A DNA stretch of 64,000 nucleotides, from NCBI GenBank assembly GCA_036504855.1, contig DASXUL010000075.1:12655-76654 (forward strand), given 5' to 3'. This document shows positions 7,640 through 50,818 of the stretch, one piece after another. The translations under genes were made by a program, and so were the position numbers. The notes under the pieces were generated by a model. It had not been told where the DNA came from and ran no database searches. It saw nothing but the letters and a program-made list of their open reading frames with translations. Each line of letters starts with the position of its first letter. Within the stretch, counting starts at the first letter, position 1. Source of the DNA: Armatimonadota bacterium. GTDB taxonomy: Bacteria > Armatimonadota > DTGP01 > JAKQQT01.

Positions 7640-7745
7640 AGTCATCAGTCGTCAGTAATCAGTATTCAGTCGGAAGGAATGCACGTCAGGATGCTGCCCT
7701 CACGGGCCAGGCCCATTGCTGATGACTGATCACTGACGACTGTGG
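7640..7745. repeat. CAGTC/GACTG stop-rich inverted-repeat element (family copy a)
   Basis: Left arm gtcatcagtcgtcagtaatcagtattcagtc; right arm gctgatgactgatcactgacgactg in inverted orientation around a ~45-nt core. It sits in an intergenic gap inside the Ubl operon. Confidence 0.6.
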
Positions 7746-21997: not shown

Positions 21998-22105
21998 GGC
22001 AGGGGGCGGACACGGCAGGCCGTGTCCCTTCCCTCACCAGTTCCATCCAGCGTCCGGTGGCCGGCCGGGCCCGCCAGTAGGAAAACGGCTTGTCGTGTCC
22101 GCTCC
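21998..22105. repeat. ~110-nt structured palindromic element (copy 1 of 2), in the mcp upstream region
   Basis: GGGGCGGACACGGCAGGCCGTGTCCC ... CCGGTGGCCGGCCGGGCC ... ACGGCTTGTCGTGTCCGC. It is alignable over its whole length with the element at 47055-47168. Confidence 0.5.
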
Positions 22106-35026: not shown

Positions 35027-36763
35027 ATGCGAATGAGCCATCACTTCGGGGAGACGTTGCGGGCGGCGCCGGGCGATGCGGATGTGGTTGGACATCAACT
35101 ATTGCTGCGGGCCGGCTACATCCGCCCGCTGGCGGCCGGCATCTTCAGCTACCTGCCGCTGGGCCTGCGCGCCATGCGCAACATCGAGGCGATCATCCGC
35201 CAGGAGATCGAGGCCATCGGCGGGCAGGAAGTCTCCATGCCGGTGGTCCACCCGGCCGAGGTCTGGCGGGAAACGGGACGCTGGCAGGAGATCGGCGAGG
35301 AGATGGCGCGATTCAAGGACCGCGCCGGCCGCGACATGGCGCTGGCGATGACCCACGAAGAAGTGGTGGCCGACCTCGTTCGTCGCGAGGTTCACTCGTA
35401 CCGGCAGCTCCCCATGCTGATCTACCAGATACAGACGAAGTTCCGCGACGAGCGACGGCCCCGCGCCGGCCTGATCCGGGTGCGCGAGTTCACGATGAAG
35501 GACTCCTATAGCCTGGATGCGGACGATGAGGGGCTGGCGACGCAGTACGCGCGGCACCTGGAAGCCTACCATCGCATCTTCCAGCGAGTGGGCCTGCCGA
35601 ACGTCATCGCCGTTTGCTCCGACACCGGGATGATGGGCGGCAAGATCGCCCACGAGTTCATGTACCTCACGGAGATCGGGGAAGATACCCTGGCGCTGTG
35701 CGATGCCTGCGGCGCTTCCGCGAACCTTCAGGTGGCGTCTTTCCGCAAGCCCGCCGCCGTCCCCGAGGCGCTCCGGCCGTTGGAGAAGGTGGCCACGCCG
35801 GGAACGACCAGCATCGAGTCGCTGGCCGCCTTCCTGGGCGTGCCCGCCGAACGGACCGCCAAGGCCGTGTTCTTCACCGCCAGCCTGCCGGACCCGGAAC
35901 CCAAGGCGGCCGGCGCATCGCGCGACGCGCTGCTGATGGCGCTGGTTCGCGGCGACATGGACGTTAACGAAACGAAGCTCGCCAACGCGTCCGGCGCGCG
36001 CTCCTTGCGGCCCGCCACGGAGGCGGAGATCCGGGCAGCCGGCGCCGTTCCGGGCTACGCCTCCCCCATCGGCATGGACCGCGCCAACGCCATAGTCGTC
36101 ATCGACGATCTCGTGGCCGCCTCTCCGAACCTCGTCTCCGGCGCCAACGAGGAGGGGTTCCACTACCTGAACGTGAACGCCGGCCGCGACTATGCGCCGG
36201 ACGCAACGGCGGACATCGCCTCGGCCTGGGAGGGCGCGCCCTGCCTGGAGTGCGGCGCGCCGTTGCGCCTGGTCCGCGGCGTGGAGGTGGGCAACATCTT
36301 CCAGTTGGGCACGCGCTACACCGAGGCCATGGGCGCCACTTTCCTGGATGCGGAAGGCCAGGCGCGTCCGGTGGTGATGGGCTCCTACGGCATCGGCATC
36401 GGCCGCCTGCTGGCCTGCCTCGCCGAGGCGCATCACGACGACCGCGGCCTCACCCTGCCCGCCGCCGTGGCCCCCCACTCCGTTCACCTCGTGCGGTTGT
36501 GCGACAAGGACCCGCAGGTGGAGGCCGCCGCCGAGGAGTTGTACGCCGCCCTCATCGAAGCGGGCGTTGATGCGCTCTACGATGACCGCGACGCCATGGC
36601 CGGTGTGAAGTTCGCGGACGCCGACCTGATCGGCATCCCTCTGCGCGTCACCGTCAGCGCCCGCGCGCTGAAGGCCGGCGGCGCCGAACTGAAGCGCCGC
36701 GCCGAAACGGAAACCCGCATCGTGCCGCTGAATGAGGTGATGGAAGTCGTCAGTCGTCAGTGA
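35027..36763 (+). CDS. proS: prolyl-tRNA synthetase (bacterial type with editing domain)
   Basis: Collinear with bacterial ProRS (MRMSHHFGETLR...HQLLLRAGYIR...FADADLIGIP). The last 5 codons (VVSRQ*) are supplied by a CAGTC repeat element. Confidence 0.85.
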   Translation: MRMSHHFGETLRAAPGDADVVGHQLLLRAGYIRPLAAGIFSYLPLGLRAMRNIEAIIRQEIEAIGGQEVSMPVVHPAEVWRETGRWQEIGEEMARFKDRAGRDMALAMTHEEVVADLVRREVHSYRQLPMLIYQIQTKFRDERRPRAGLIRVREFTMKDSYSLDADDEGLATQYARHLEAYHRIFQRVGLPNVIAVCSDTGMMGGKIAHEFMYLTEIGEDTLALCDACGASANLQVASFRKPAAVPEALRPLEKVATPGTTSIESLAAFLGVPAERTAKAVFFTASLPDPEPKAAGASRDALLMALVRGDMDVNETKLANASGARSLRPATEAEIRAAGAVPGYASPIGMDRANAIVVIDDLVAASPNLVSGANEEGFHYLNVNAGRDYAPDATADIASAWEGAPCLECGAPLRLVRGVEVGNIFQLGTRYTEAMGATFLDAEGQARPVVMGSYGIGIGRLLACLAEAHHDDRGLTLPAAVAPHSVHLVRLCDKDPQVEAAAEELYAALIEAGVDALYDDRDAMAGVKFADADLIGIPLRVTVSARALKAGGAELKRRAETETRIVPLNEVMEVVSRQ

Positions 36764-36820
36764 TCAGTCATCAGTCCGGAGGGCGACCGCAAGGGTATGC
36801 CTTCCGGACTGATGATCTAG
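36746..36820. repeat. CAGTC/GACTG stop-rich repeat element (family copy b) overlapping the proS stop; left edge of the lower-GC island
   Basis: gtcgtcagtcgtcagtgatcagtcatcagtccgga-gggcgaccgcaagggtatgcc-ttccggactgatgatc. Confidence 0.6.
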
Positions 36821-37216: not shown

Positions 37217-38416
37217 ATGTGCCAGACTGTGCCACAGAGCTATTCGCCGATACTTATGAGTACTACATTGAACCCTGCCATTGGACTCCTGAATTGGCAT
37301 CCGAGACAGACACTGGCCGAGATGACCGAAATCTACCTAGCGGATGAGCGTCCATGGATCATCGCATACAGTGGCGGCAAAGACTCCACAGCGGTAGTCC
37401 AGCTAGCGTATACGATGCTCTTTCGGTTGCCAGAACAATCCCGCACCAAGTCGATTTCCGTCATCAGCAATGATACCTTGGTCGAGGCACCCCCCGTCGC
37501 CGAGCACCTTCGCTCTTCCCTCGCCTCCATGGAGAGGGCCGCGATCAGGGACCAACTCCCTATTACCTTCGCCGTTACGACCCCAGAGCTCAAGAACCGA
37601 TTCTTTGTCAAGGTCATCGGTCGAGGGTACCCGGCGCCAAATCGCTATTTCCGCTGGTGCACCGACAAGATGAAGATTGGCCCGACCAGTGACTTTATCC
37701 GGCGCAAGATCAGTGAAGACGGCGAAGTCAATATACTTCTGGGGACCAGGCGCGCTGAGAGTTCTCAGAGGGCAAAGAGCATTGATAAGCACAAGGCACA
37801 GCATGGAATGGGTGCGCTGCGCGCCCACCCGAGTCTGGCAGGGGCTAAGGTGTACGCCCCGATTGAATCGTTGGAAACGGACGATGTATGGGCATACCTT
37901 CTAAGCTACCCGCCACCTTGGGACAAGCCGAATCGGGATCTCTGGGTCTTGTACGGGAAGGCCAGTGGGGTTGAGTGTCCAATCGTTCTCGACAAGACCT
38001 CTCAACCTTGTGGTGCAGGACGATTCGGGTGCTGGACGTGCACCGTAGTTCAAAAGGACAAGTCCCTTCAAGGTTTGGTTGACAATGGAGAGGAGACGCT
38101 CGAACCATTACTCGATTTCCGTGATTGGCTTAAGGGCTACCGTGATGACGTGAGTGTTCGCGAACCAACACGACGCAACGGGCGGCCAGGACCCGGACCG
38201 TTTACTCTTGCGGCACGGCAGACCATCTTGAACCGCCTAGTTCTGGCAGAACAGGAATCTGGGTTGATTCTACTGCACCCCGACGAACTAGAGGCAATCG
38301 CCGATCTATGGAGGGAAGATGGATTCGACGGCGAGATCTCGCCGAGCTCGCCACGCTATGGGGTTCCTAACGGAGGGCTAGAGGAGCGCAATCTACAGGA
38401 GGCTACCTACCGATGA
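37217..38416 (+). CDS. PP-loop ATP-pyrophosphatase, PAPS-reductase/DndC-like, with a C-terminal Cys cluster
   Basis: PP-loop 'IIAYSGGKDSTAV'. 'PCGAGRFGCWTCTVV' Cys motif as in DndC-type enzymes. Lower GC (~52%). Confidence 0.6.
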   Translation: MCQTVPQSYSPILMSTTLNPAIGLLNWHPRQTLAEMTEIYLADERPWIIAYSGGKDSTAVVQLAYTMLFRLPEQSRTKSISVISNDTLVEAPPVAEHLRSSLASMERAAIRDQLPITFAVTTPELKNRFFVKVIGRGYPAPNRYFRWCTDKMKIGPTSDFIRRKISEDGEVNILLGTRRAESSQRAKSIDKHKAQHGMGALRAHPSLAGAKVYAPIESLETDDVWAYLLSYPPPWDKPNRDLWVLYGKASGVECPIVLDKTSQPCGAGRFGCWTCTVVQKDKSLQGLVDNGEETLEPLLDFRDWLKGYRDDVSVREPTRRNGRPGPGPFTLAARQTILNRLVLAEQESGLILLHPDELEAIADLWREDGFDGEISPSSPRYGVPNGGLEERNLQEATYR

Positions 38417-38919
38417 CCGCAGATCAAGATTGTGACAGGCGAGACGGCTGGTTTGAATTTGGCCAGCAGCTTAAGTTGCGGGCAACGTGTCCATTCCATA
38501 GCCCTGCGGCAGTGTGGTATTTCCTATCAGTTATACTTGCGGTGAATGCCGTGTCAATCTGGCTATCGTACTCCTCACGGGGGACAGATGTGATTCCGTC
38601 GTCGATTCCCAGGCATATTGCCGTAACGGCGGTGGGGTTGCTTACGGCTGCAGCTGCGGACTTGGTTCTGGAGGCGGATTCGAAGACATCATTGCGAGCG
38701 TTCTGGACTGCCCTACTGATTTTTGGAGTCATCGCCATTGGATTTGCACACACGACCGGGTCCTGGTGGTCGTGGGGAGCAGCTGTTGGCGGTGTAACAA
38801 TCGCCTGCTTCATGTGGTGGTGCAGCACCGGAAACCGCCTGAATCTCCAGGACCGCGCAATCACGCCCCCTGGCGGTGATGGGCCACCCAGCGGAACAAC
38901 CGAAGGATACCAAGTATGA
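38413..38919 (+). CDS. small integral membrane protein (4 predicted TM helices), coupled between the DndC-like and DGQHR genes
   Basis: Overlapping start and stop codons on both sides. Hydrophobic helices. Confidence 0.5.
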   Translation: MTADQDCDRRDGWFEFGQQLKLRATCPFHSPAAVWYFLSVILAVNAVSIWLSYSSRGTDVIPSSIPRHIAVTAVGLLTAAAADLVLEADSKTSLRAFWTALLIFGVIAIGFAHTTGSWWSWGAAVGGVTIACFMWWCSTGNRLNLQDRAITPPGGDGPPSGTTEGYQV

Positions 38920-40229
38920 ACATCGAATCAGCGATATGCCCGTACCTGGCCCCAGCCATCCGGATCGAACAGCCATTGGGTGAGTTCTTTGTGGCGGCGA
39001 TTCCCGCCCGAGTGCTCCTTGCTACGGCGTTCACAAACTACTTTCGTATTCCTAAGAGGGATCCACAGATCGAAGCGTATCCGGCAATCGGGCTGCAGCG
39101 GGCAAAGAGTGATCATCGACTGCGGGAGTTGGAAAGATATATTCAGTCAGTGGATGCTGCCTTTCCGAATTCGATTATTCTCGCAGCGAACGAGGCGAGC
39201 AGTGGGCAGCCGCCAATCCAGGAGTCTGAGCAGTGGAGCATCGTTACTACTGGGAACGAGGGACTGGCACTGCGGATCCCGACGCTTCGCGAAGCTGCTA
39301 GCATTATCGACGGCCAGCACCGCTTAGAGGGGTTCCGAAATGTGCCTGAGGATCAAAAGGGCATGGCACTGCTCTGCGCAGTCTATTTCGACTTGCCTGT
39401 TGCTTACCAAGCATACGTCTTCGCCACGATCAACTTCAACCAGAAGAAAGTGGACCGAAGTCTCGCTTACGACCTATTCGGATATGCGATAGAGAACGAA
39501 CCTCCTAATGCGTGGACCCCGGACGTTCTGGCCGTCTACATAACTCGAAGGCTCAACATGGACCCCGAGTCTCCTCTCCATAGGCGTATCATTGTTGCAG
39601 CCAAGGACTCCGATGCCCTATTCTCGACTCCACTTGGAAAGGGTGAATGGCGCGTATCTACTGCCACAGTCGTAGACGGAGTTCTGAGGTTAGTGTCTGC
39701 ACACCCGTCTCTTGACCGCGATCGCATGCGAACGGCTCCGATCGCCAAGAGAAGCCGACAAATGTTGAGTGTCGACAGCGCACCATTCCGAAAAGCGTTT
39801 CTTGAGGGAAATGACATCCTGGTTTACCTCGCCACTGTCAATTTCCTCAATGCGCTTCAGCATATCGTCTGGGTGGATCAGCCGAGAGAGTCGTTTCTAT
39901 TCAAAACGGTCGGCATTCAGGCATCGTTCGAGCTCTTGGCCGAGTTGATTCCGCTTTGCCTAGCTAACTCGGACTTTCGCTATGATCTTTTCGCGCGGAT
40001 TCTGGAGGGTGTCGGGACCTGTGACTTCTCGCAGCCGTTCTTCCAGCAGTCGTCTTCGGTAGGTCGCATTCGGATATTGCAGTGCCTGCGCTATCTAGTA
40101 GGGCTCGTCGACATTAACGGCCTTCCAGAAAGGGACAACGAGCTGTATCGCGGCGCCCTGAAGAGTAGCCGTCAATCGACCTTTCAGATTCGTGAAAGCA
40201 ATCCCAACCAGGGAAGCTCTAGAGCATAG
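38916..40229 (+). CDS. DGQHR-domain protein (DndB-like family)
   Basis: An explicit 'IIDGQHRLEGF' motif. ~437 aa, matching DndB-family size. Confidence 0.65.
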   Translation: MNIESAICPYLAPAIRIEQPLGEFFVAAIPARVLLATAFTNYFRIPKRDPQIEAYPAIGLQRAKSDHRLRELERYIQSVDAAFPNSIILAANEASSGQPPIQESEQWSIVTTGNEGLALRIPTLREAASIIDGQHRLEGFRNVPEDQKGMALLCAVYFDLPVAYQAYVFATINFNQKKVDRSLAYDLFGYAIENEPPNAWTPDVLAVYITRRLNMDPESPLHRRIIVAAKDSDALFSTPLGKGEWRVSTATVVDGVLRLVSAHPSLDRDRMRTAPIAKRSRQMLSVDSAPFRKAFLEGNDILVYLATVNFLNALQHIVWVDQPRESFLFKTVGIQASFELLAELIPLCLANSDFRYDLFARILEGVGTCDFSQPFFQQSSSVGRIRILQCLRYLVGLVDINGLPERDNELYRGALKSSRQSTFQIRESNPNQGSSRA

Positions 40230-40253
40230 GCGTTCATAGATAGGAGACACGCT

Positions 40254-40955
40254 ATGAGACACACCGAAGCAGAGGAGGAAACTCATCGGTTCTATGAGAC
40301 CAGAGGATGCCACTGGTCGTCCACGAGATTGGCCGCGGATTACTGGGAACCGGAGCTTTGTCAGTTTCGCCAGTTATTGGCTTCTGGGAGCATCCTTGAC
40401 GCAGGTTGCGGAAACGGCCGCGATTACGACTTTTTCCGCCGGGTTGGCTATTCATACACCGGCATTGATGTCTCCAGCCAAATGCTTGCAATTGCCCGGG
40501 ACAACCATCCAGATGGCGCGTTTGCCAGCATGGATGTCTGTGATCTTGCGTTTGATTCGCTAGCATTCGATGGCATCTGGTGCGTTGCCGTTCTACTGCA
40601 TTTTCCTAAAGCTGTGGTTGATCGTCCTCTTCAGGAGTTGTGTCGCGTACTCCGAAAAGGCGGCGTTGTCTTTTTCGCGGTTCGTGACGGAAGCCGCGAG
40701 TACATGAGCGAGGAACAAGAAGGCACACAGAGATTCTTTGCCGAGTATTCGGTAGACGAGCTTTCGGACCGATTGTCTCAGAGTGGATTGACGCCGATCC
40801 ACGTTTGTACGCGGGATGCTCCAGGTGAAGATCAGGCTCGGTGGACCACCGCATTTGCGGTCAAGGGCGAAGTTGAGGGAAGCCATCAGGAGGTCATGGG
40901 TGGACACAAGAGTTCGCACCGTCACGATTCGATCATTCAACAAGTTTCATTCTGA
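40254..40955 (+). CDS. class I SAM-dependent methyltransferase
   Basis: Motif I 'ILDAGCGNGRD'. Motif post-I/II 'GIDVS', 'FDGIW'. Confidence 0.7.
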   Translation: MRHTEAEEETHRFYETRGCHWSSTRLAADYWEPELCQFRQLLASGSILDAGCGNGRDYDFFRRVGYSYTGIDVSSQMLAIARDNHPDGAFASMDVCDLAFDSLAFDGIWCVAVLLHFPKAVVDRPLQELCRVLRKGGVVFFAVRDGSREYMSEEQEGTQRFFAEYSVDELSDRLSQSGLTPIHVCTRDAPGEDQARWTTAFAVKGEVEGSHQEVMGGHKSSHRHDSIIQQVSF

Positions 40956-41616
40956 GGTATCCAGTCATCAAGACGAGTGGTCGAATTGGTGCTACAGAGG
41001 CAGCAACAGCGGCAAACATCATCTCGTGCCGAAGTCCGGTAGAGATCCATTCGCGCCAGATGATGTGGATACGGATAAGAAGATGTTTGAGCGGTGGAAG
41101 CAACTCGCCGTTGCCGACATACCAACCCATGCGAGAGATGACTGGGATCTCCTTGCTATCGCTCAGCATCATGGCCTCGCCACAAGACTCCTAGACTGGA
41201 CTTATAACGCACTAATAGCGGCCTTCTTTGCGGTTGTAGACTCGCGTAGCCTCTCTGTCCCTAACGAGGATTGCGTTGTGTGGGCCCATTATACGAAGGA
41301 GACTGTTGACCCACAGAAGGAAGAGCCGTTTGGTGTTACCGGGTACAAGCGCCTTCGGCCGAAGGGGGTGGTGCCTAGGGTGGTTCGTCAGGGCGGATAC
41401 TTCACGATACACAATCCTCCGTCAACCGCTCTGGAGGACAAACTGAATCCGGAGGACAAGCTTGTAAGGATGATCATCAAGGGCTCGTATCGTTCTACAC
41501 TTGCTATTGAGTTGTCTCACTATGGCGTTAACTCAATGAGTCTGTTCCCGGATCTTGATGGCCTAGCAAGGCATTTGAATTGGGTCTTCACGAGCATGCC
41601 TTCAGAATCGGCCTAG
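40816..41616 (+). CDS. FRG-domain protein (start uncertain; no canonical start downstream of the MTase stop)
   Basis: 'WSNWCYRGSNSGKHHLVP' resembles the FRG-domain core (W..FRGQ...L.P). The ORF overlaps the MTase 3' end by ~140 nt as drawn. Confidence 0.4.
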   Translation: MLQVKIRLGGPPHLRSRAKLREAIRRSWVDTRVRTVTIRSFNKFHSEVSSHQDEWSNWCYRGSNSGKHHLVPKSGRDPFAPDDVDTDKKMFERWKQLAVADIPTHARDDWDLLAIAQHHGLATRLLDWTYNALIAAFFAVVDSRSLSVPNEDCVVWAHYTKETVDPQKEEPFGVTGYKRLRPKGVVPRVVRQGGYFTIHNPPSTALEDKLNPEDKLVRMIIKGSYRSTLAIELSHYGVNSMSLFPDLDGLARHLNWVFTSMPSESA

Positions 41617-41907: not shown

Positions 41908-41938
41908 TAGGCCGACCTGATCGGCATCGCGTTGCGCG
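41908..41938. repeat. 31-nt near-identical (28/31) direct copy of an internal proS segment (36617-36647, codons ADLIGIPLRV), at the right island boundary
   Basis: gccgacctgatcggcatcgcgttgcgcgtca versus proS gccgacctgatcggcatccctctgcgcgtca. Confidence 0.6.
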
Positions 41939-42075
41939 TCAGTCATCAGTCATCAGTCAGGCGACCTTGGCCTCATCGGGAGGCAATCTCATGGAGCAAG
42001 GCCTCCGGACTGACAACTGACAACTGACAACTGATGACTGACGACTGATCACTGATCGCTGACGGCTGACAGCTG
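41937..42075. repeat. CAGTC/GACTG stop-rich repeat element (family copy c), abutting the PHP gene stop
   Basis: agtcatcagtcatcagtcag-gcgacc...cctccggactg-acaactgacaactgacaactgatgactgacgactgatcactgatcgctgacggctgacagctg. Confidence 0.6.
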
Positions 42076-42079
42076 TTCC

Positions 42080-43324
42080 TCAGAACCGTTTACCCCAAAC
42101 GAGGCCGGGGTGCGGGAAGAGGTGGAACTGGGCGGTGTCGGCGTGGGTGTGCTTGCCCAGCCACGCGCCGATGCCCTCGGTGTCGGAGCCGAAGGCGGAG
42201 CCCAGCGTGAAGAGGAGGCGCGGCAGGCCGCGGCGGAGGGCGCGGCGTTCCGCGCTATCGTCAAAGCGCGTATCGGCTTGCGTGCGGCCGGCCAGGATGG
42301 CGGCGCGCACGCCGTCAGCGGTAGCGGGGCAGTTCTCCATCACGGTATAACAGGCGCCGACGACCGCCGGGTCGTGCGCGTCGCTGCTGCCGATGGCGGG
42401 CTTGCGAACCGTTCGGTAGAACGCCTCGCGCGTATCCTCCCCGTGGCGGGCCATGGCGAAGTGCATCTCTTCAGCGGCGTTTTCCGTTTCCACCGCATCG
42501 AACGGCAGCGCGTTGGCGAGATCCTTCACGCCGTCCGGGAGCTGCGGGTGCGCCGCGATGGCGATTCCGCCCTGGGCGTGGATCTCCTCCACGGTGTGCG
42601 CGGCGCTCATCCCCGGCGCGATCTCCTGCGTGAGAAACAGCCCCACGATGTGCCCCTGGGCGCTGCTGATCTCCTCGCCGGGGATCACCAGAAAACTCGC
42701 CGGCGCCTTGCCCTCGCGGATCAGGCCTGGCAGGGCTTCCTGGGCCTTGTGGACGCCGCCCATCGTGTTGTGGTCCGTGATGGCGATGCCGGAGAGCCCG
42801 CGGTAGGCGGCGGCGCGCAACATCTGCACGGGGTCGGCCAGGGAATCGTGGCTGTAGCAGGTGTGCACGTGGAGATCGAGGGCGAGGCCGCCGGGCGGCG
42901 GGGTGATGCGCGCATCCGCGTTGAGGTGGCGCACCGAGGCGCGTTTGGCGTAGGTGGCATAGAGGTCGCCCTGCGGACGGAAGAGGATTTCGGTGAGGTT
43001 GCCGTTGCGCAAGAGCGGCAGGGAGAGCAGGAACTTGTTGCGCAAAGCATTGAGGTCCACATCGCCGGGCTCCGTGGCGTTGCCGAAGAGGCGTTCCATC
43101 TCGAAGAGAGACCCCAGCCCGAAGCTGCCCTGCAGGTTGGGGGCGTCCAGGCCGAACACGAGGGATGGCGGGGTCCGGCCGCTGATCACCTGCTCGTCGT
43201 ACCAGTGGTCCTTCGCCTGGTGGACCCAGTAGGGATCCTGGTTGCTGGCGGGGGACTGGGCGCGGGCGGTTGATGCGGCTGCGGCGACGGTCGCGACAAA
43301 GGCGAACAGCAGTAGAGGTTTCAT
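42080..43324 (-). CDS. secreted PHP-domain (polymerase/histidinol-phosphatase family) metal-dependent phosphoesterase
   Basis: Signal peptide MKPLLLFAFVATVAAAASTARA. PHP motifs 'DLHVHTCYSHDS' and 'GIAITDHN'. Confidence 0.6.
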   Translation of the reverse strand: MKPLLLFAFVATVAAAASTARAQSPASNQDPYWVHQAKDHWYDEQVISGRTPPSLVFGLDAPNLQGSFGLGSLFEMERLFGNATEPGDVDLNALRNKFLLSLPLLRNGNLTEILFRPQGDLYATYAKRASVRHLNADARITPPPGGLALDLHVHTCYSHDSLADPVQMLRAAAYRGLSGIAITDHNTMGGVHKAQEALPGLIREGKAPASFLVIPGEEISSAQGHIVGLFLTQEIAPGMSAAHTVEEIHAQGGIAIAAHPQLPDGVKDLANALPFDAVETENAAEEMHFAMARHGEDTREAFYRTVRKPAIGSSDAHDPAVVGACYTVMENCPATADGVRAAILAGRTQADTRFDDSAERRALRRGLPRLLFTLGSAFGSDTEGIGAWLGKHTHADTAQFHLFPHPGLVWGKRF

Positions 43325-44055
43325 ACGGGTTCTACTCCGCGGACGGACGGGCATCTCAGGATGCGAAAGAGGAGGCCAAGGCGGCCCGCGCGGTGCGAGA
43401 CGCTGACGCGGGGCAGGCGGTATGGGTCCTCGCCGCTCACCACGCGGCGTTTCTCCGTGGTGACGGCCAAGCTGTATCCAGCTTCTTCAACACCACAGCG
43501 CACGGCGGCGTTCACGCAACCGCTAGGATAGCAGAACGATGGCACGGAGATCCCGAGCGCGGACTCCAGGTCAGCCTTGCCGCCCACGAGCTCGCGCGTG
43601 AGGCGCTCCGCGTCGGCTTTGCACAGGTCTGTATGGGTCATGGTGTGGGCTCCGATGTCCCACCCGTCGTCTCTGAGATCGCCGAGTTGTTCCAACGTGA
43701 GCAGCGGCCGCCCCTTCAACGTGGCGGCGGGTTCCCAGTCGTTCGTCTGCCCCACATAGCCGCTCACGACGAAGACGGTGGCCGTGAACCCCATTTCCTT
43801 CAGAACGGGCCGCACGGACCAGTGCAGGTCCGCGTCGCCGTCGTCGAAGGTGAGGGCGAATCGTTTGGCGGGCAGCGGCTCCTTCGCTCTCAGTTTTGCG
43901 GCGAGATCCTGAAGGGAGATGGAAGTCCAACCGATGTTTTTCAGAAGCCTCATATGCGCCGCGAACACGGGCGCGTGGCAGAAGATGCTGGCGTGGCGGC
44001 GGACGGTGGGGTGATCGCCCACGAAATGATAGGTGAGAATTGGAACGTTACGCAT
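43321..44055 (-). CDS. polysaccharide deacetylase (NodB-homology / CE4) family protein
   Basis: 'FALTFDDGDADLHW' and 'ATVFVVSGYVG' CE4 motifs. Confidence 0.6.
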   Translation of the reverse strand: MRNVPILTYHFVGDHPTVRRHASIFCHAPVFAAHMRLLKNIGWTSISLQDLAAKLRAKEPLPAKRFALTFDDGDADLHWSVRPVLKEMGFTATVFVVSGYVGQTNDWEPAATLKGRPLLTLEQLGDLRDDGWDIGAHTMTHTDLCKADAERLTRELVGGKADLESALGISVPSFCYPSGCVNAAVRCGVEEAGYSLAVTTEKRRVVSGEDPYRLPRVSVSHRAGRLGLLFRILRCPSVRGVEPV

Positions 44056-45512: not shown

Positions 45513-46688
45513 ATGCGCACCTGGGTCGGTTGTATTCGCATTGATGGCCTGTACGTCACCGTGGAACGCGAACACGGCGCCGTTTCTCCGTTCGCCATCG
45601 CCAACGGCAAATCCATCGTGGATGCCTGCCCGAAGGCCCGCGCCGCCGGCGTGGTCCCCGGCGCCCTCGTGGCCAGCGCCCGCCGCCTCTGCGCCGGCCT
45701 GCGCATTCTGGCCTTCGAGCCCCGCCGCTACCGCGCCGCCGCCGGCCGATGGATGCGCCCATGCCTGGACCACTCTCCCTGGCTGGAGCCGCTGGCCCCC
45801 CACGAGGCCTTCCTGGACCTTACCGGCCACCCGGATCCCAACGCCGCCATCCGCGACCTGCACCGCCTCAGCCAGGGATACGGCCTTTCCGCCCGCGCCG
45901 CCGTGGCCTCCAACAAGCTCGTCGCTCGCGCCGCGACCATCGTGCCGGATACGCTGCGGGACCCGGTGACCCTCGTGCCGCCCGGCGCGGAGCGCGCTTT
46001 TCTGGCCCCCCACCCCGTGCGCGCGCTGTGGCCGCTGGGCGAGAAGCTTTTGGCCCGCCTGGAGCGCCTGGAGTATGAGAACGTGGCCGAGATCGCCGCC
46101 TCCTCGCTGACGGACCTGAGATCCCAGTTGGGCAAGGAGGCGGCGATGGTCCAGACTCTCGCGCAGGGCCGGTACCCGGACCCGGTGCGCGCCCTCTATC
46201 CCGAGGCCACCATCCGCCGCCGCGAGCGCTGGCTGGAGCCGATTGAGCTGGAAGAGATGCTGTGGAAACGCGTGGGAGAGATGGCGAAAGACGCCGCCGA
46301 GGCGCTCTCTGGCCGCTGCTGCCGCGTGTTCAGCCTCACCCTGGAGATGGAAGACAACACGCGCCGGGAGACCCGCGAAACCCGCCGCCTGATGGACCGC
46401 GCCAAGCTGCCGGAAACGGCCCTGCGCCTGCTGGAGCGGCTGGCGCCGGATGGGCCCGTGGCCGGCGTGGCGCTGGTGGCCGGCGCTTTGCAGGACCCGC
46501 CGCCTCTGGATGGCGACCTGTTTTCGCTGGACAAGATCCGCCGCCGCCGCGCGCTGGACGACGCCACCCTGTGCCTGGAGGAGCGGTTCGGAAAGCGTAT
46601 CCTGTTTCCGTGTTCCGACGTGCCGGTCCCATGGCGCGAACAGGCGTGGCAGGCATTTTGGGGCCGGTTGGGGGCCGGCGTCGTATGA
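45513..46688 (+). CDS. imuB: ImuB-like Y-family polymerase paralog (mutasome subunit)
   Basis: Y-family fold pattern; context is a LexA box upstream and dnaE2 downstream. Confidence 0.65.
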   Translation: MRTWVGCIRIDGLYVTVEREHGAVSPFAIANGKSIVDACPKARAAGVVPGALVASARRLCAGLRILAFEPRRYRAAAGRWMRPCLDHSPWLEPLAPHEAFLDLTGHPDPNAAIRDLHRLSQGYGLSARAAVASNKLVARAATIVPDTLRDPVTLVPPGAERAFLAPHPVRALWPLGEKLLARLERLEYENVAEIAASSLTDLRSQLGKEAAMVQTLAQGRYPDPVRALYPEATIRRRERWLEPIELEEMLWKRVGEMAKDAAEALSGRCCRVFSLTLEMEDNTRRETRETRRLMDRAKLPETALRLLERLAPDGPVAGVALVAGALQDPPPLDGDLFSLDKIRRRRALDDATLCLEERFGKRILFPCSDVPVPWREQAWQAFWGRLGAGVV

Positions 46689-46921
46689 ACCGCCATGAGT
46701 ACCCCGCCCGCGTGGGCGGCCGGCCGGGGCGCATCGAATGGGTGGCCTGGGGCGGCCGCCGCGTGATGGTGCGCCAGGTGGTGTGCTGGTGGGACGAGCC
46801 GCCGCTGCCCTGGGACGGCGTGCCGGAGCGCCATTACGCCCGCCTCCTTCTGGAGACCGGCGGCGTTCTGGAAGTCTACCACTCCGACGAAAACTGGCGC
46901 GTCTGCGGCCTGGAGGATTGA
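46685..46921 (+). CDS. small Trp-rich hypothetical protein translationally coupled to imuB (ATGA overlap)
   Basis: 78 aa: MNRHEYPARVGGRPGRIEWVAWGG...HYARLLLETGGVLEVYHSDENWRVCGLED. Confidence 0.4.
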   Translation: MNRHEYPARVGGRPGRIEWVAWGGRRVMVRQVVCWWDEPPLPWDGVPERHYARLLLETGGVLEVYHSDENWRVCGLED

Positions 46922-47054
46922 TGTCCGCCATCAGCTATCAGCCGTCAGTTGTCAGCCAGAAGGTTGGGACATGAGGCTCTTTCAGTGCCCAGTTAGGGAG
47001 GATCTGTCAGAGAGCAAGCTTGCGGATCGCATCGGATGCTTATGATCTCCACGC

Positions 47055-47168
47055 GTTACGGGGCGGACACGGCAAGCCGTGTCCCTACGCGTCACTGGTT
47101 CCATCCACCGAACGGTGGACGGCCGGGCCGACCTGTAGGGACACGGCTTGCCGTGTCCGCCCCGTAAC
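47055..47168. repeat. ~110-nt structured palindromic element (copy 2 of 2), in the dnaE2 5' region
   Basis: Two 34-nt arms, GTTACGGGGCGGACACGGCAAGCCGTGTCCCTAC and its reverse complement. Each arm is itself a hairpin, and they flank a CCACCG-aa-CGGTGG hairpin. Confidence 0.6.
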
Positions 47169-47227
47169 TTCCATGGATCAGACGCTTCTGTCGTGCAATC
47201 CCCGGGAAGCCCGGTTAAGAAAAATCC

Positions 47228-50200
47228 ATGGAACAGGAATTCCAGCCGAAGAAAAGGCTTGTGTGGTCCGATGACGGAGGCTGGCGAACGAACGACGGCC
47301 GGCCCGCTTCCGCGCCGGTTCCGCCGCCTCCCCCTCCCCCCGCCGCGCCGGCCTCCTATGTGGAGCTGCACTGCCACAGCCAGCACAGCCTGCGCGACGG
47401 CGCGGCGCACATTGAGGACCTCGCGGCCCGCGCCAAGGCCCTCGGCATGCCGGCCCTGGGCGTTACCGACCACGATTCCATGGCCGTGGCCCCGGAGTTC
47501 CGCGCGGCCGCCGTGGCGGAGGGGGTGAAGCCCATCCAGGGCGTGGAGGTTTCCTTCGCCGGGCATGCCGGCGGCGCTTTCCACCTGACGCTGCTGGCCG
47601 AAACCGATGAGGGCTTCGGGCATCTCTGCGAAATCCTCACGCTCATGCGGGGGCCGATGTCCACGGTGTTGCGCCCGCAGGAGACGGCCCCGGACGCGCC
47701 CTCCCGCCGCAACCCGTTCGCCACGATGGACATGCTAACCGGCCGCGCCAAGGGCATCCTCTGCCTCACCGGCTGCGCCAAGGGGAAGCTGGCCCACCAC
47801 CTGTTGCGCCGCGAGGAAGAAGAAGCCGAACAAACGCTCGGTTTGTGGGCGGACCTCTTCGGCAAGGAGAACGTCTTCGTGGAATTGCAGGACCACAAGC
47901 GCGGCTTCGAGCCATCGCTGAACCGCCGCCTGTGCGAACTGGCGGATCGCTTCGACCTGCCCGTTGTGGCCACCAACAATGTGCATTTCCTGGCGCGCGC
48001 CGATTTCTGGGTGCACGAGGCCATGGCCTGCTGGCGCGCCGGCCGCCTCAGCCGCACCGCCGTGTTCCCGGAGCGTCCCCGCAGCGCCGAAGCGTACCTG
48101 AAGGGCGCGGATGAGATCGCCCGCCTCTTCCGGCCCCGCCCCGACGCCCTCTCCAACACCCTCGCCATCGCGGAGCGGTGCACTCCCGTGTTGGACCCCG
48201 CTGTGCGCCGCTGGCCGGATTTCACGCCGCCCCCCGGCTTCACCGAGGATTCCTATCTGGACCACCTGGTGGGGCTGGGAGCGCGCGCCCGGTACGGCGC
48301 CAACGTGCCCGCCGAAGTGTGCCGCCGCATCCAGTACGAGCTGCGCCTCATCCGCGCCAAGGGCTTCTGCGGCTATTTCCTGCTGGTGTGGGCGGTCTGC
48401 CGCTGGATGCGGCAGGTGGATATCCTCTATCGCGTGCGCGGCTCGGCCGGCGGCAGCGTTGTGGCCTATTGCCTCTACATTGCCACCCTGGACCCGTTCG
48501 TATATGACCTGTCCTTCGACCGCTTCCTGAACGAGGCCCGCAGCGCGCCGCCGGATATCGACCTGGATATCGACAGCCGCGAGCGCGACCGCGTGGTGGA
48601 CCACCTGCGCCAGATGTATGGACGCGACCGCGTGGCCAGCGTGGCCGCCTACAGCACCATCCGGGGGAAATCCCTGATCCGCGATTTCGGGCCCGTGTTC
48701 GATCTGCCGCCGGATGTTATTGACCTCGCCAGCAAGTCCCTGCGCAACGTGGGGGCGCACCACCTGGGCGAGGCGTTCGAGGGCCTCCCGCAACTGCGCG
48801 ACGCCGGCATCCCCAAGGAGCCCTTCCAGCCGCTCATCGACCTCGGCCTGAAGATATCGCGCTTCCCCAGCCACACCCAGACCACCGTGGGTGTGGTGAT
48901 CTCCGGCCTGCCGCTGACCCAGGTCTCCCCGCTCTGGCCCGCCGCCAAGGACGGCCAGGCAGCCGTTTCCTACGACAAGGACTGGGTGGAGCGCGTTGGC
49001 CTCATCAAAACCGACTTCCTCTTCCTCCGCGAACTCGCCGCCATCCGCGACTGCGTGAGAAGCATGGAGAAGGGATCGGATTCCGGATCCCGGATTCCGG
49101 ATTCCGACATGGATGCGGAGCCGGCCTGCATACAGGAAGCTTTCGCCGCTGATCGGATTCCGGATTCCGACATGGACTCGCGGGAGGTGATCTGCGGGAG
49201 TGAGCCAGCCACAAAGGGTCGGAATCCGGAATCCGGAATGCGGGCCCCGATCTCTCTTCCGAATCCGGAATCCGGAATCCGGACCCCGATTTCCTCTTTC
49301 GACTATGACGGTATTCCTCTGGACGATCCGGATACGTTTGCGCTGCTGGCCTCGGGGCGCACCATTGGGGTTTTCCAGTTGGAGAGCCCGGCGCAGCGGG
49401 TGCTGATGCAGCGGATGAGGCCCTCGCACATCAAGGATTGCGTGGCGGCGGTGGCGCTGATCCGGCCGGGGCCGATCACTGGCGACGCCGTGACGCCCTT
49501 CGTGGTCCGCCGCACCGGGCGCGAGCCGGTCACCTATCCGGACGAGCGTCTGCGGCCCGTGCTGGAGGATACGTACGGCGTGGTGATTTACCAGGATCAG
49601 GTGATCGAGCTGGCCATGGCCGCCGCCGGCTGGAGCCCGGACCGGGCGGACCAGTTGCGCCGCCGCATCAGCCACGCCCGCAGCAAGGACATGATGCGCG
49701 ACATCCAGGTGGAGTTCATCGCCGCGGTGTTGGCTCAAGGCTTTACGCAGGAGGTAGCGGACTGGTGTTTCAAGAGCATCCTGGGTTTCGCCAGCTACGG
49801 CTTCTGCCATGCCCACGCGGCGGCCTTCGGGGAGACCGCCTACAAGAGCGCCTACCTGCTGGCCCATTACCCCAGCCACTACCTGATGGGCATTATGAAC
49901 AATTACCCGATGGCCTACTATCCGTTGCGAACGGTGGTGGCCGAGGCGCGCCGGCGCGGGGTAAAGGTGCTTCCCCCGGACGTGAACCGCAGCCAGGCGG
50001 ATGACATCGCCAACGACACGACCATCCGCGCGGGGCTGAAGCACGTTCACGGCATCAAGCGCCGCACGCTGGAGGCTATTGCAGCGGCGCGCGCCGAGGG
50101 CTCCTTCCCCACCGTGCCGGAGTTCTGCGCGCGCGTTCCCGTCTCGCGTGACGAGGTGGAATCGCTGGCGCTGGCCGGGGCGTTCGATGCGCTGCACCCG

Positions 50201-50818
50201 AACCGCAAGGCGATTCTGCGCGCCTCGGAGCGGCTGGCCGCGGATGGCGCGGCGCGGCGGACGCTGGGGCGGAACCTCCTGACGGAAACGGCGCTGCCCC
50301 GCGTGCGGGATTTCACCGATTACGACAAATCGCTGAAGGAACTGGCCACGCTGGGGTTCTGCGCCGGGCCGGACCCGGTTTCGTTCCACCGGCGGCGGCT
50401 GGCGATGGCGGGGGTGCAAACGTGCGCTCAGGCGGCGGCCACGCGTGACGGCGGCCGCGTTGTGGTGGCGGGCTGGCGCACCCGCGCCCACACCCCGCCC
50501 ATCCGCAGCGGAAAAACCATCGTCTTCTTCACGCTGGAAGACGAAACCGATATCCTGGACATCACCGTGTTTCCAGACGTGTACGACATCTATGGGCGCA
50601 CGGTATTCGCGGAGCGGATGGTGGTGGTGTGCGGATACGCCAACTACCGGGATGGCGCGTTCGGAGTGGTGGCCGAATCCATTCGCCCGTTGCGCGACGT
50701 GCTCATTGCGGCCCGCGAAATGGAGATGGCGCTGCCCGCTTTCACGGACACGAGCATGGCCGAAAGCGGCTGGACCCTCCCGGCCGCCGCCTTCGCCAAC
50801 GAGGTGGACGGGCGGTGA
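47228..50818 (+). CDS. dnaE2: error-prone DNA polymerase III alpha-subunit paralog DnaE2 (PHP + pol IIIa core + OB)
   Basis: N-terminal PHP 'YVELHCHSQHSLRDGA'. 1196 aa. Sits downstream of imuB in the LexA-box cassette. Confidence 0.8.
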   Translation: MEQEFQPKKRLVWSDDGGWRTNDGRPASAPVPPPPPPPAAPASYVELHCHSQHSLRDGAAHIEDLAARAKALGMPALGVTDHDSMAVAPEFRAAAVAEGVKPIQGVEVSFAGHAGGAFHLTLLAETDEGFGHLCEILTLMRGPMSTVLRPQETAPDAPSRRNPFATMDMLTGRAKGILCLTGCAKGKLAHHLLRREEEEAEQTLGLWADLFGKENVFVELQDHKRGFEPSLNRRLCELADRFDLPVVATNNVHFLARADFWVHEAMACWRAGRLSRTAVFPERPRSAEAYLKGADEIARLFRPRPDALSNTLAIAERCTPVLDPAVRRWPDFTPPPGFTEDSYLDHLVGLGARARYGANVPAEVCRRIQYELRLIRAKGFCGYFLLVWAVCRWMRQVDILYRVRGSAGGSVVAYCLYIATLDPFVYDLSFDRFLNEARSAPPDIDLDIDSRERDRVVDHLRQMYGRDRVASVAAYSTIRGKSLIRDFGPVFDLPPDVIDLASKSLRNVGAHHLGEAFEGLPQLRDAGIPKEPFQPLIDLGLKISRFPSHTQTTVGVVISGLPLTQVSPLWPAAKDGQAAVSYDKDWVERVGLIKTDFLFLRELAAIRDCVRSMEKGSDSGSRIPDSDMDAEPACIQEAFAADRIPDSDMDSREVICGSEPATKGRNPESGMRAPISLPNPESGIRTPISSFDYDGIPLDDPDTFALLASGRTIGVFQLESPAQRVLMQRMRPSHIKDCVAAVALIRPGPITGDAVTPFVVRRTGREPVTYPDERLRPVLEDTYGVVIYQDQVIELAMAAAGWSPDRADQLRRRISHARSKDMMRDIQVEFIAAVLAQGFTQEVADWCFKSILGFASYGFCHAHAAAFGETAYKSAYLLAHYPSHYLMGIMNNYPMAYYPLRTVVAEARRRGVKVLPPDVNRSQADDIANDTTIRAGLKHVHGIKRRTLEAIAAARAEGSFPTVPEFCARVPVSRDEVESLALAGAFDALHPNRKAILRASERLAADGAARRTLGRNLLTETALPRVRDFTDYDKSLKELATLGFCAGPDPVSFHRRRLAMAGVQTCAQAAATRDGGRVVVAGWRTRAHTPPIRSGKTIVFFTLEDETDILDITVFPDVYDIYGRTVFAERMVVVCGYANYRDGAFGVVAESIRPLRDVLIAAREMEMALPAFTDTSMAESGWTLPAAAFANEVDGR
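49085..49310. repeat. in-frame composite repeat insertion (GGATTCCGG/CCGGAATCC direct and inverted units) inside dnaE2
   Basis: Two direct CGGATTCCGGATTCCGACATGGA units, then two inverted (T)CGGAATCCGGAATCCGGA..CCCCGAT units. They encode RIPDSDMD x2 and NPESGxRxPIS x2. Confidence 0.6.

Follow-up and report, generated by a model that had tools for sequence, protein, structure and literature searches.

An in-frame insert of inverted heptamer arrays in a DnaE2-type polymerase gene of an Armatimonadota bacterium

The insert and its repeat anatomy

We analysed a 64,000-nt stretch of contig DASXUL010000075.1 from an uncultured Armatimonadota bacterium (the window), in which a gene for a DnaE2-type DNA polymerase III alpha subunit contains a block of nested, inverted heptamer arrays that stays in the reading frame. 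The gene, the insert and the four repeat units within it are located as follows; ORF denotes open reading frame.

47228..50818, + strand: DnaE2-type DNA polymerase III alpha gene, host of the insert; 1196-residue ORF that reads through the block
49064..49297, + strand: in-frame, stop-free insert of 234 nt or 78 codons (MEKGS...TPISS), absent from homologues and solved structures
49066..49108, + strand: forward unit A1, outer left arm; heptamer array (CGGATTC) x4.3 at 49077-49106
49152..49176, + strand: forward unit A2 (truncated), inner left arm; array x2.3 at 49154-49169
49218..49260, + strand: reverse unit B1, inner right arm; array (CGGAATC) x3.4 at 49220-49243; contains a perfect 18-nt complement of A2
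49258..49297, + strand: reverse unit B2, outer right arm; array (GAATCCG) x3.3 at 49261-49283; tandem 39-nt (13-codon) duplicate of B1

The block is made of four units of about 40 nt (AGAGGAAATCGGGGTCCGGATTCCGGATTCCGGATTCGGA), a forward and a reverse pair, with tandem CGGATTC heptamers at the core of each unit, and repeat finders recovered both the direct and the inverted pair that the initial annotation had described in dnaE2. Two identical copies of a 23-nt direct repeat (CGGATTCCGGATTCCGACATGGA), at 49091-49113 and 49154-49176, are spaced 63 nt (21 codons) apart. The reverse-orientation copies (49219-49254 and 49258-49293) share 89% identity over 36 nt, and Tandem Repeats Finder (TRF) gave the reverse units a period of 39 nt (2.0 copies, 88% matches). 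Perfect inverted arms of 18 nt (49154-49171/49218-49235) and 17 nt (49090-49106/49266-49282) are accompanied by imperfect arms of 43 nt (49066-49108/49218-49260, 81%) and 40 nt (49068-49107/49258-49297, 83%). This repeat pattern is beyond chance: with at most one mismatch, CGGATTCCGGATTC has eight matches in the window, all in 49077-49281, against 0.11 expected from shuffles. The segment had been put at 49085-49310; its length of about 220 nt stood, and we redrew its limits to 49064-49297, with the inverted repeat starting at 49066.

As a single strand, the block folds into one long nested hairpin (RNA, -128.4 kcal/mol, z = -5.8; DNA, -69.9 kcal/mol, z = -6.2), and none of 200 shuffles folded as well. 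Of the cruciform proposed initially, the strong hairpin potential was thus borne out, but the arms lie 46-150 nt apart, a spacing that disfavours extrusion from duplex DNA, and we judged a cruciform in the duplex unlikely. Rfam searches over the whole window returned nothing at gathering thresholds and, in 46600-49600, two sub-threshold chance matches, neither within the insert; a terminator scan found no terminator-like site at the insert. The block is identical in a second assembly (JGI Ga0376481_001056; 23,591 of 23,591 bases), which may share reads with the NCBI third-party metagenome-assembled genome (MAG). At the potential slippage hotspot of the initial annotation, these two assemblies thus show no length difference.

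The block has no stop codon in the polymerase frame, as do just 6.5% of composition-matched shuffles, and its +1 and +2 frames contain stops. Both flanks belong to the same gene and the 1196-codon ORF is unbroken, which agrees with the in-frame status first assigned to the block; the peptides RIPDSDMD (twice), NPESGMRAPIS and NPESGIRTPIS are likewise read in frame, as annotated. CGGATTC has no stop codon in any of its six frames and therefore permits read-through. The common heptamers of the window, of the NNACTGA type, carry TGA in one orientation, so that an inverted pair of them could not be read through. The spacings of the internal duplications, 63 and 39 nt, are both multiples of three.

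The palm-to-fingers loop in the family and in close relatives

We aligned the protein with its 120 best homologues and counted the linker between the near-invariant anchors D608 and P697. The linker has 17-18 residues in 97 of the 120 homologues and at least 35 in 13; in the window protein it has 88. HMMER matches to proteins of solved structure were split exactly at the block, leaving about 77 query residues unmatched, with flanks that align to 535-635 and 643-753 of Taq Pol III alpha and to 471-574 and 584-695 of Escherichia coli alpha. Judged by these alignments, the block is an insertion relative to the family, as had been proposed, distant homologues having the 17-18-residue linker. The domains that flank it are intact.

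The block lies at the palm-to-fingers junction (about 574-584 in E. coli alpha and 636-642 in Taq), where solved homologues have a loop. An AlphaFold2 model built from 52 sequences had a mean predicted local distance difference test (pLDDT) of 85.4 and a predicted template modelling score of 0.84. In it, residues 619-688 are placed between helix 601-618 and the fingers domain, with a pLDDT of 25-42 and no secondary structure, and the flanks have a pLDDT above 90. On this model, translation of the block would add some 70 residues as a disordered loop, with a confidently modelled domain on either side, which accords with the tolerated loop of the initial annotation; the disorder prediction and the loop in solved homologues both support a site at which an insert would disturb no fold.

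Close relatives differ at this loop. Among five Armatimonadota relatives (72-75% identity), P0005 has no insert and P0004 has 3 extra residues; P0002, P0003 and P0006 have inserts that add 41 to 181 residues and bear no sequence relation to the window insert. Most of these unrelated inserts have their own repeats or hairpins. The P0006 insert has a unit of about 144 nt, packed with GC-rich palindromes, in three tandem copies, and its element (CCCTCCCCCAGCCCCTCCCAAGGGGAGGG and flanks) is also found at L002 9482-9851, in intergenic DNA upstream of the P0006 gene. In P0003, the P0006-type palindrome family occupies this loop and also a second one, within the PHP region; at the second loop, P0002 has a perfect palindrome, and the window protein is also predicted to be disordered there (145-159, AlphaFold2). 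Folding was significant for the P0003 insert (z = -3.6) and not for the P0002 insert overall (z = 0.07). Aligning the window insert with the insert of its sister P0002 gave no convincing homology beyond the flanks. In a neighbour-joining tree, the insert-free P0005 was basal (100% bootstrap), the window protein paired with P0002 (94%) and P0003 with P0006 (100%); the tree gave no choice between one ancestral insertion and two, with insert-bearing sequences monophyletic in 43% of bootstraps.

Outside this group, P0115, an unrelated DnaE2, has this loop occupied in frame by an element whose 18-nt terminal inverted repeats are perfect (z = -3.6), and P0076 and P0105 have non-palindromic expansions there. 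The loop has thus undergone repeated expansion in other DnaE2 lineages.

Separately, members of the GC-rich palindrome family (CCTNACCCCCC.GCCCCCTTCCC...GGGAAGGGGGC) were located at L002 9482-9851 and 11309-11932, L001 10496-10563, and L003 860-905 and 2405-2445. Present in frame at two dnaE2 loops of relatives and in adjacent intergenic DNA, these palindromes constitute a dispersed element family.

Heptamer arrays and genes around the insert

Over the whole window, TRF found four other heptamer-array elements (six arrays) beside the four arrays in the insert.

7640-7745: array, spacer and inverted array, NNACTGA-type unit, at a gene 3′ end
36745-36812: array, spacer and inverted array, NNACTGA-type unit, at a gene 3′ end
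41938-42075: array, spacer and inverted array, NNACTGA-type unit, at a gene 3′ end
46922-46958: lone half array, NNACTGA-type unit, at a gene 3′ end

Their units (AGTCATC, ACTGACA and similar) have an ACTGA core in common, and their sites are between convergent ORFs, at the proS stop codon and directly adjoining the stop of a PHP-domain ORF. RNA folding of the three paired elements gave z scores of -4.3 to -6.1. Among the relatives, SGGATTC-type arrays lie upstream of the P0003 gene and in the C-terminal coding end of the P0004 gene, and the P0002 insert contains a CCCCCAT array. The window genome and its relatives are rich in heptamer-array hairpins.

Inverted (CGGATTC)n arrays also occupy gaps between convergent genes in two MAGs of other phyla, Planctomycetota (Isosphaeraceae) and Verrucomicrobiota (Opitutaceae), with drifting units (CAGATTC, CGGATGC and CGGATGA).

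Isosphaeraceae MAG, long inverted arrays: L025 4585-4760; L031 6200-6390; L013 6620-6750
Opitutaceae MAG, long inverted arrays: L047 1115-1281; L038; L073

Across 212 fetched loci with the motif, 93 had at least three units and 6 had an inverted partner array. Scanning 185,579 species genomes for CGGATTCCGGATTCCG gave at least 117 stretches, mostly chance singletons, and none of the matches listed came from this organism. A metagenome scan for CGGATTCCGGATTCCGAC gave 95 stretches; the JGI sample of the window lies outside that collection, so its own contig was not returned. The shared motif and layout suggest that inverted heptamer hairpins form a cross-phylum class.

Two REPIN-like doublets were also seen in the window, at 47054-47170 and 22008-22100. 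Each consists of two inverted copies of a hairpin repeat (GGACACGGCWWGCCGTGTCC and flanks) about 55 nt apart; the repeat has four matches against 0.02 expected, and one doublet is situated just upstream of the dnaE2 start.

The host protein has the Pfam domains PHP (46-223), DNA_pol3_alpha (343-598), finger (690-837), HHH_6 (911-995) and OB (1078-1155). It scores 697 bits with TIGR00594 (cut-off 434), and Foldseek matched its AlphaFold2 model to Pol III alpha structures (template modelling score of 0.72-0.79 to 7pu7). With NCBIfam, it falls under the cut-offs both of NF004225 (error-prone DNA polymerase; 753 bits against 939) and of NF004226 (DnaE; 764 bits against 1002), each match being broken at residues 620/692 by the insert; on these models it classifies as a member of the Pol III alpha superfamily. 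Past the OB fold (1078-1155 of 1196), the protein continues for only about 40 residues, with a tail predicted to be disordered (1172-1196, AlphaFold2), and the tau-binding domain after the OB fold is absent. The DnaE2 label of the initial annotation agrees with the C-family architecture, the end soon after the OB fold and an ImuB-like gene upstream, but not with the score under the NCBIfam error-prone subfamily cut-off; "DnaE2-type" is a reasonable, if not proven, name, and the polymerase is probably error-prone. Two genes lie directly upstream, in what may be a cassette.

45513..46688, + strand: ImuB-like Y-family gene with an IMS domain (Pfam IMS, E = 7.5e-14), upstream, putative cassette partner
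46685..46921, + strand: small 78-residue ORF between imuB and dnaE2, at the position of the DUF6504 ORF in other cassettes

The order of ImuB-like gene and polymerase is also found in relatives, and the gene order in other homologues is RecA-like, IMS, DUF6504, polymerase. A Pfam search with the 78-residue ORF gave no match; other loci have a weak DUF6504 match at the equivalent position. An imuA/RecA-like gene is not adjacent at the window locus and is present in locus L219.

Several further features of the locus were noted. Residues 1-44 of the polymerase (window 47228-47360) form an N-terminal extension that includes a proline run (PVPPPPPPPAAP); the extension is predicted to be disordered and is missing from distant homologues, and in P0002 it holds a CCCCAAT/CCCCATC heptamer array (L001 10158-10186). 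At the P0002 locus, the interval from the imuB-like gene to dnaE2 also holds a gene for a PemK-type toxin, together with a small partner ORF (L001 9317-9936). A PHP + PHP_C gene (window 42080-43354, - strand; L001 2829-4073, - strand), followed by polysaccharide deacetylase and GT4 glycosyltransferase genes, adjoins the imuB-dnaE2 cassette, and the group is syntenic in the window and the sister genome. PAPS-reductase-like, DndB-like, methyltransferase and FRG-domain genes are clustered upstream of the cassette (window about 37322-41616; L004 95-4389), possibly as an island for DNA modification or defence.

Origin of the insert and comparison with known systems

We consider it probable that the block is passenger repeat DNA, namely nested inverted CGGATTC arrays, held in a permissive palm-to-fingers loop and translated as a disordered extra loop. 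A hairpin or heptamer seed would have arrived or arisen in the loop and would then have grown by heptamer replication slippage and by in-frame local duplications with periods of 63 and 39 nt. Selection on the polymerase would let only stop-free, frame-preserving versions survive, and the block would persist because it is harmless to a polymerase that stays under selection. We infer that it has no function of its own. Several points weigh against this account. That the block lacks a function rests on absence of evidence; selection for the hairpin, and not a recent origin, could explain why the arms are nearly perfect (18/18 and 17/17); and all insert-bearing close relatives retain some hairpin potential, P0002 excepted (z = 0.07). 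In addition, the 64-kb window, over which the search was made, holds no second copy of the heptamer element, and a single population sequence lies behind the analysis.

An alternative, suggested in part by the initial annotation, is that a transposase-mobilised non-autonomous element, either a miniature inverted-repeat transposable element (MITE) or a REPIN-like doublet, landed in dnaE2 and was in frame by chance. The layout of the block, an inverted pair of units, would fit such an element, as would its terminal inverted repeats (40-43-nt arms at the ends, 81-83% complementarity); the genome holds REPIN-like doublets of another family (47054-47170 and 22008-22100), the dnaE2 insert of L002 is a copy of an element in upstream intergenic DNA, and in-frame MITE insertions are on record (PMC10969869). 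Yet we found no target-site duplication at any plausible boundary of the block, flank matches occurring only inside the heptamer arrays themselves, and no second copy of the unit or its spacers in the 64-kb window or in 218 fetched loci, which gave bare heptamer arrays only. The insert peptide had no match among 5.8 billion protein clusters, and the units are microsatellite arrays with no fixed consensus. A classical MITE is not supported by these observations, and we regard mobilisation by a transposase as unlikely. An intein was also considered and rejected, the block having no intein Pfam domain and being just 78 residues long and disordered.

A function for the repeats at the level of DNA or RNA seems distinctly unlikely. 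The heptamer arrays could act as a contingency switch in which gain or loss of 7 nt toggles the polymerase, each unit shifting the frame by one into the stop-containing +1 and +2 frames, or the mRNA hairpin could be a cis-regulator that limits translation or recruits RNase III, being very stable (-128 kcal/mol) and having counterparts in hairpin potential at the loop in several lineages. The arrays are short, however, at 2-4 units, which is below the usual array length of phase-variable loci; the two assemblies, which may share reads, are identical; neither a terminator-like site nor an Rfam family covers the block; and sister lineages conserve neither the sequence nor the structure of the insert. 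The particular version in which one-unit slippage reversibly silences and restores inducible mutagenesis in a subpopulation, with recurrent colonisation of the loop reflecting selection for switching, is a very remote prospect. We think it highly unlikely, too, that the added residues are an adaptation of the protein, such as an acidic or proline-rich segment at which a partner like ImuB or the clamp would dock. The loop is kept in frame and long loops occur at the site in several lineages, but loop sequences are unrelated between close relatives, the segment has no predicted structure and no peptide homologue, and its periodicity is set by the DNA (7 nt) and not by the protein. An assembly artefact, by repeat-induced misjoin or collapse, is very unlikely. 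The sequence does come from metagenome assembly, in which repeats are error-prone, and the two assemblies may share reads; against this, both flanks are in the same gene and frame, the block is stop-free, identity to the second assembly extends over 23.6 kb, and relatives have inserts at the same codon position.

Taken as passenger DNA, the block can be set beside several known systems. In behaviour, its closest analogue is the Rickettsia palindromic elements (RPEs), described as selfish palindromic DNA in frame within protein genes (Ogata et al. 2000, via PMC10969869). Both are palindromic blocks of 100-250 nt that are in frame, translated, absent from orthologues and located at fold-tolerated sites, and in both the same gene has been struck at more than one permissive loop in relatives. 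The window block is palindromic, in frame, stop-free and absent from orthologues; unlike RPEs as described there, it shows no multi-copy family with a conserved peptide, which is where membership in an RPE-like class fails, and its units are heptamer microsatellite arrays. The host is a free-living Armatimonadota rather than Rickettsia, and the likeness drawn here is one of behaviour.

Cyanobacterial short tandemly repeated repetitive sequences are bacterial heptanucleotide simple-sequence repeats (SSRs), and by composition the block belongs with this class: it has tandem 7-nt units, and its genome has several such arrays. Among bacterial long SSRs, heptanucleotide repeats are a recognised and abundant class, which includes those of Mrazek and the TAACTGA repeats of Beggiatoaceae, Cyanobacteria and Bacteroidetes (PMC4679880). 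As in that class, the window has tandem 7-nt units in many arrays per genome, mostly intergenic near gene ends, and its other arrays have the ACTGA core in common with the TAACTGA repeats, although they are paired in inverted orientation. Unlike the block, the TAACTGA repeats are for the most part direct and lie upstream of start codons. Within ORFs, arrays have been noted to persist solely when their orientation is free of stops and their place in the protein is peripheral (MacGregor, PMC4679880). The arrays of the block differ in being inverted-paired into long hairpins and in lying in the middle of an enzyme rather than at a terminus, both of which are unusual.

The REP, BIME and REPIN sequences, mobilised by RAYT (PMC3116915, PMC3333891), share with the block inverted doublets of short repeats that form hairpins. 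The units of the block, in contrast, are not fixed palindromes of about 25 nt, it has one copy in 64 kb, no RAYT gene was noticed, although no search was aimed at one, and REPs are extragenic by definition. In Borg elements, recently formed in-frame nucleotide repeats give proteins disordered segments (PMC9879509), and the block resembles them in adding a disordered protein segment through in-frame repeats; theirs are direct with unit lengths divisible by three, and the unit of the block is 7 nt and palindromic.

The block gives no sign of a new mechanism and is a well-supported curiosity, a variant of known passenger DNA. Its setting indicates that the palm-to-fingers loop of C-family polymerases accepts 30 to 180 extra residues in many lineages, and tags could usefully be engineered into Pol III alpha or DnaE2 at this site. 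The comparison with known systems also brings to notice a putative cross-phylum class of inverted heptamer-array hairpins, and it would extend translated selfish palindromes of the Rickettsia type to free-living Armatimonadota and to hairpins made of heptamer microsatellites.

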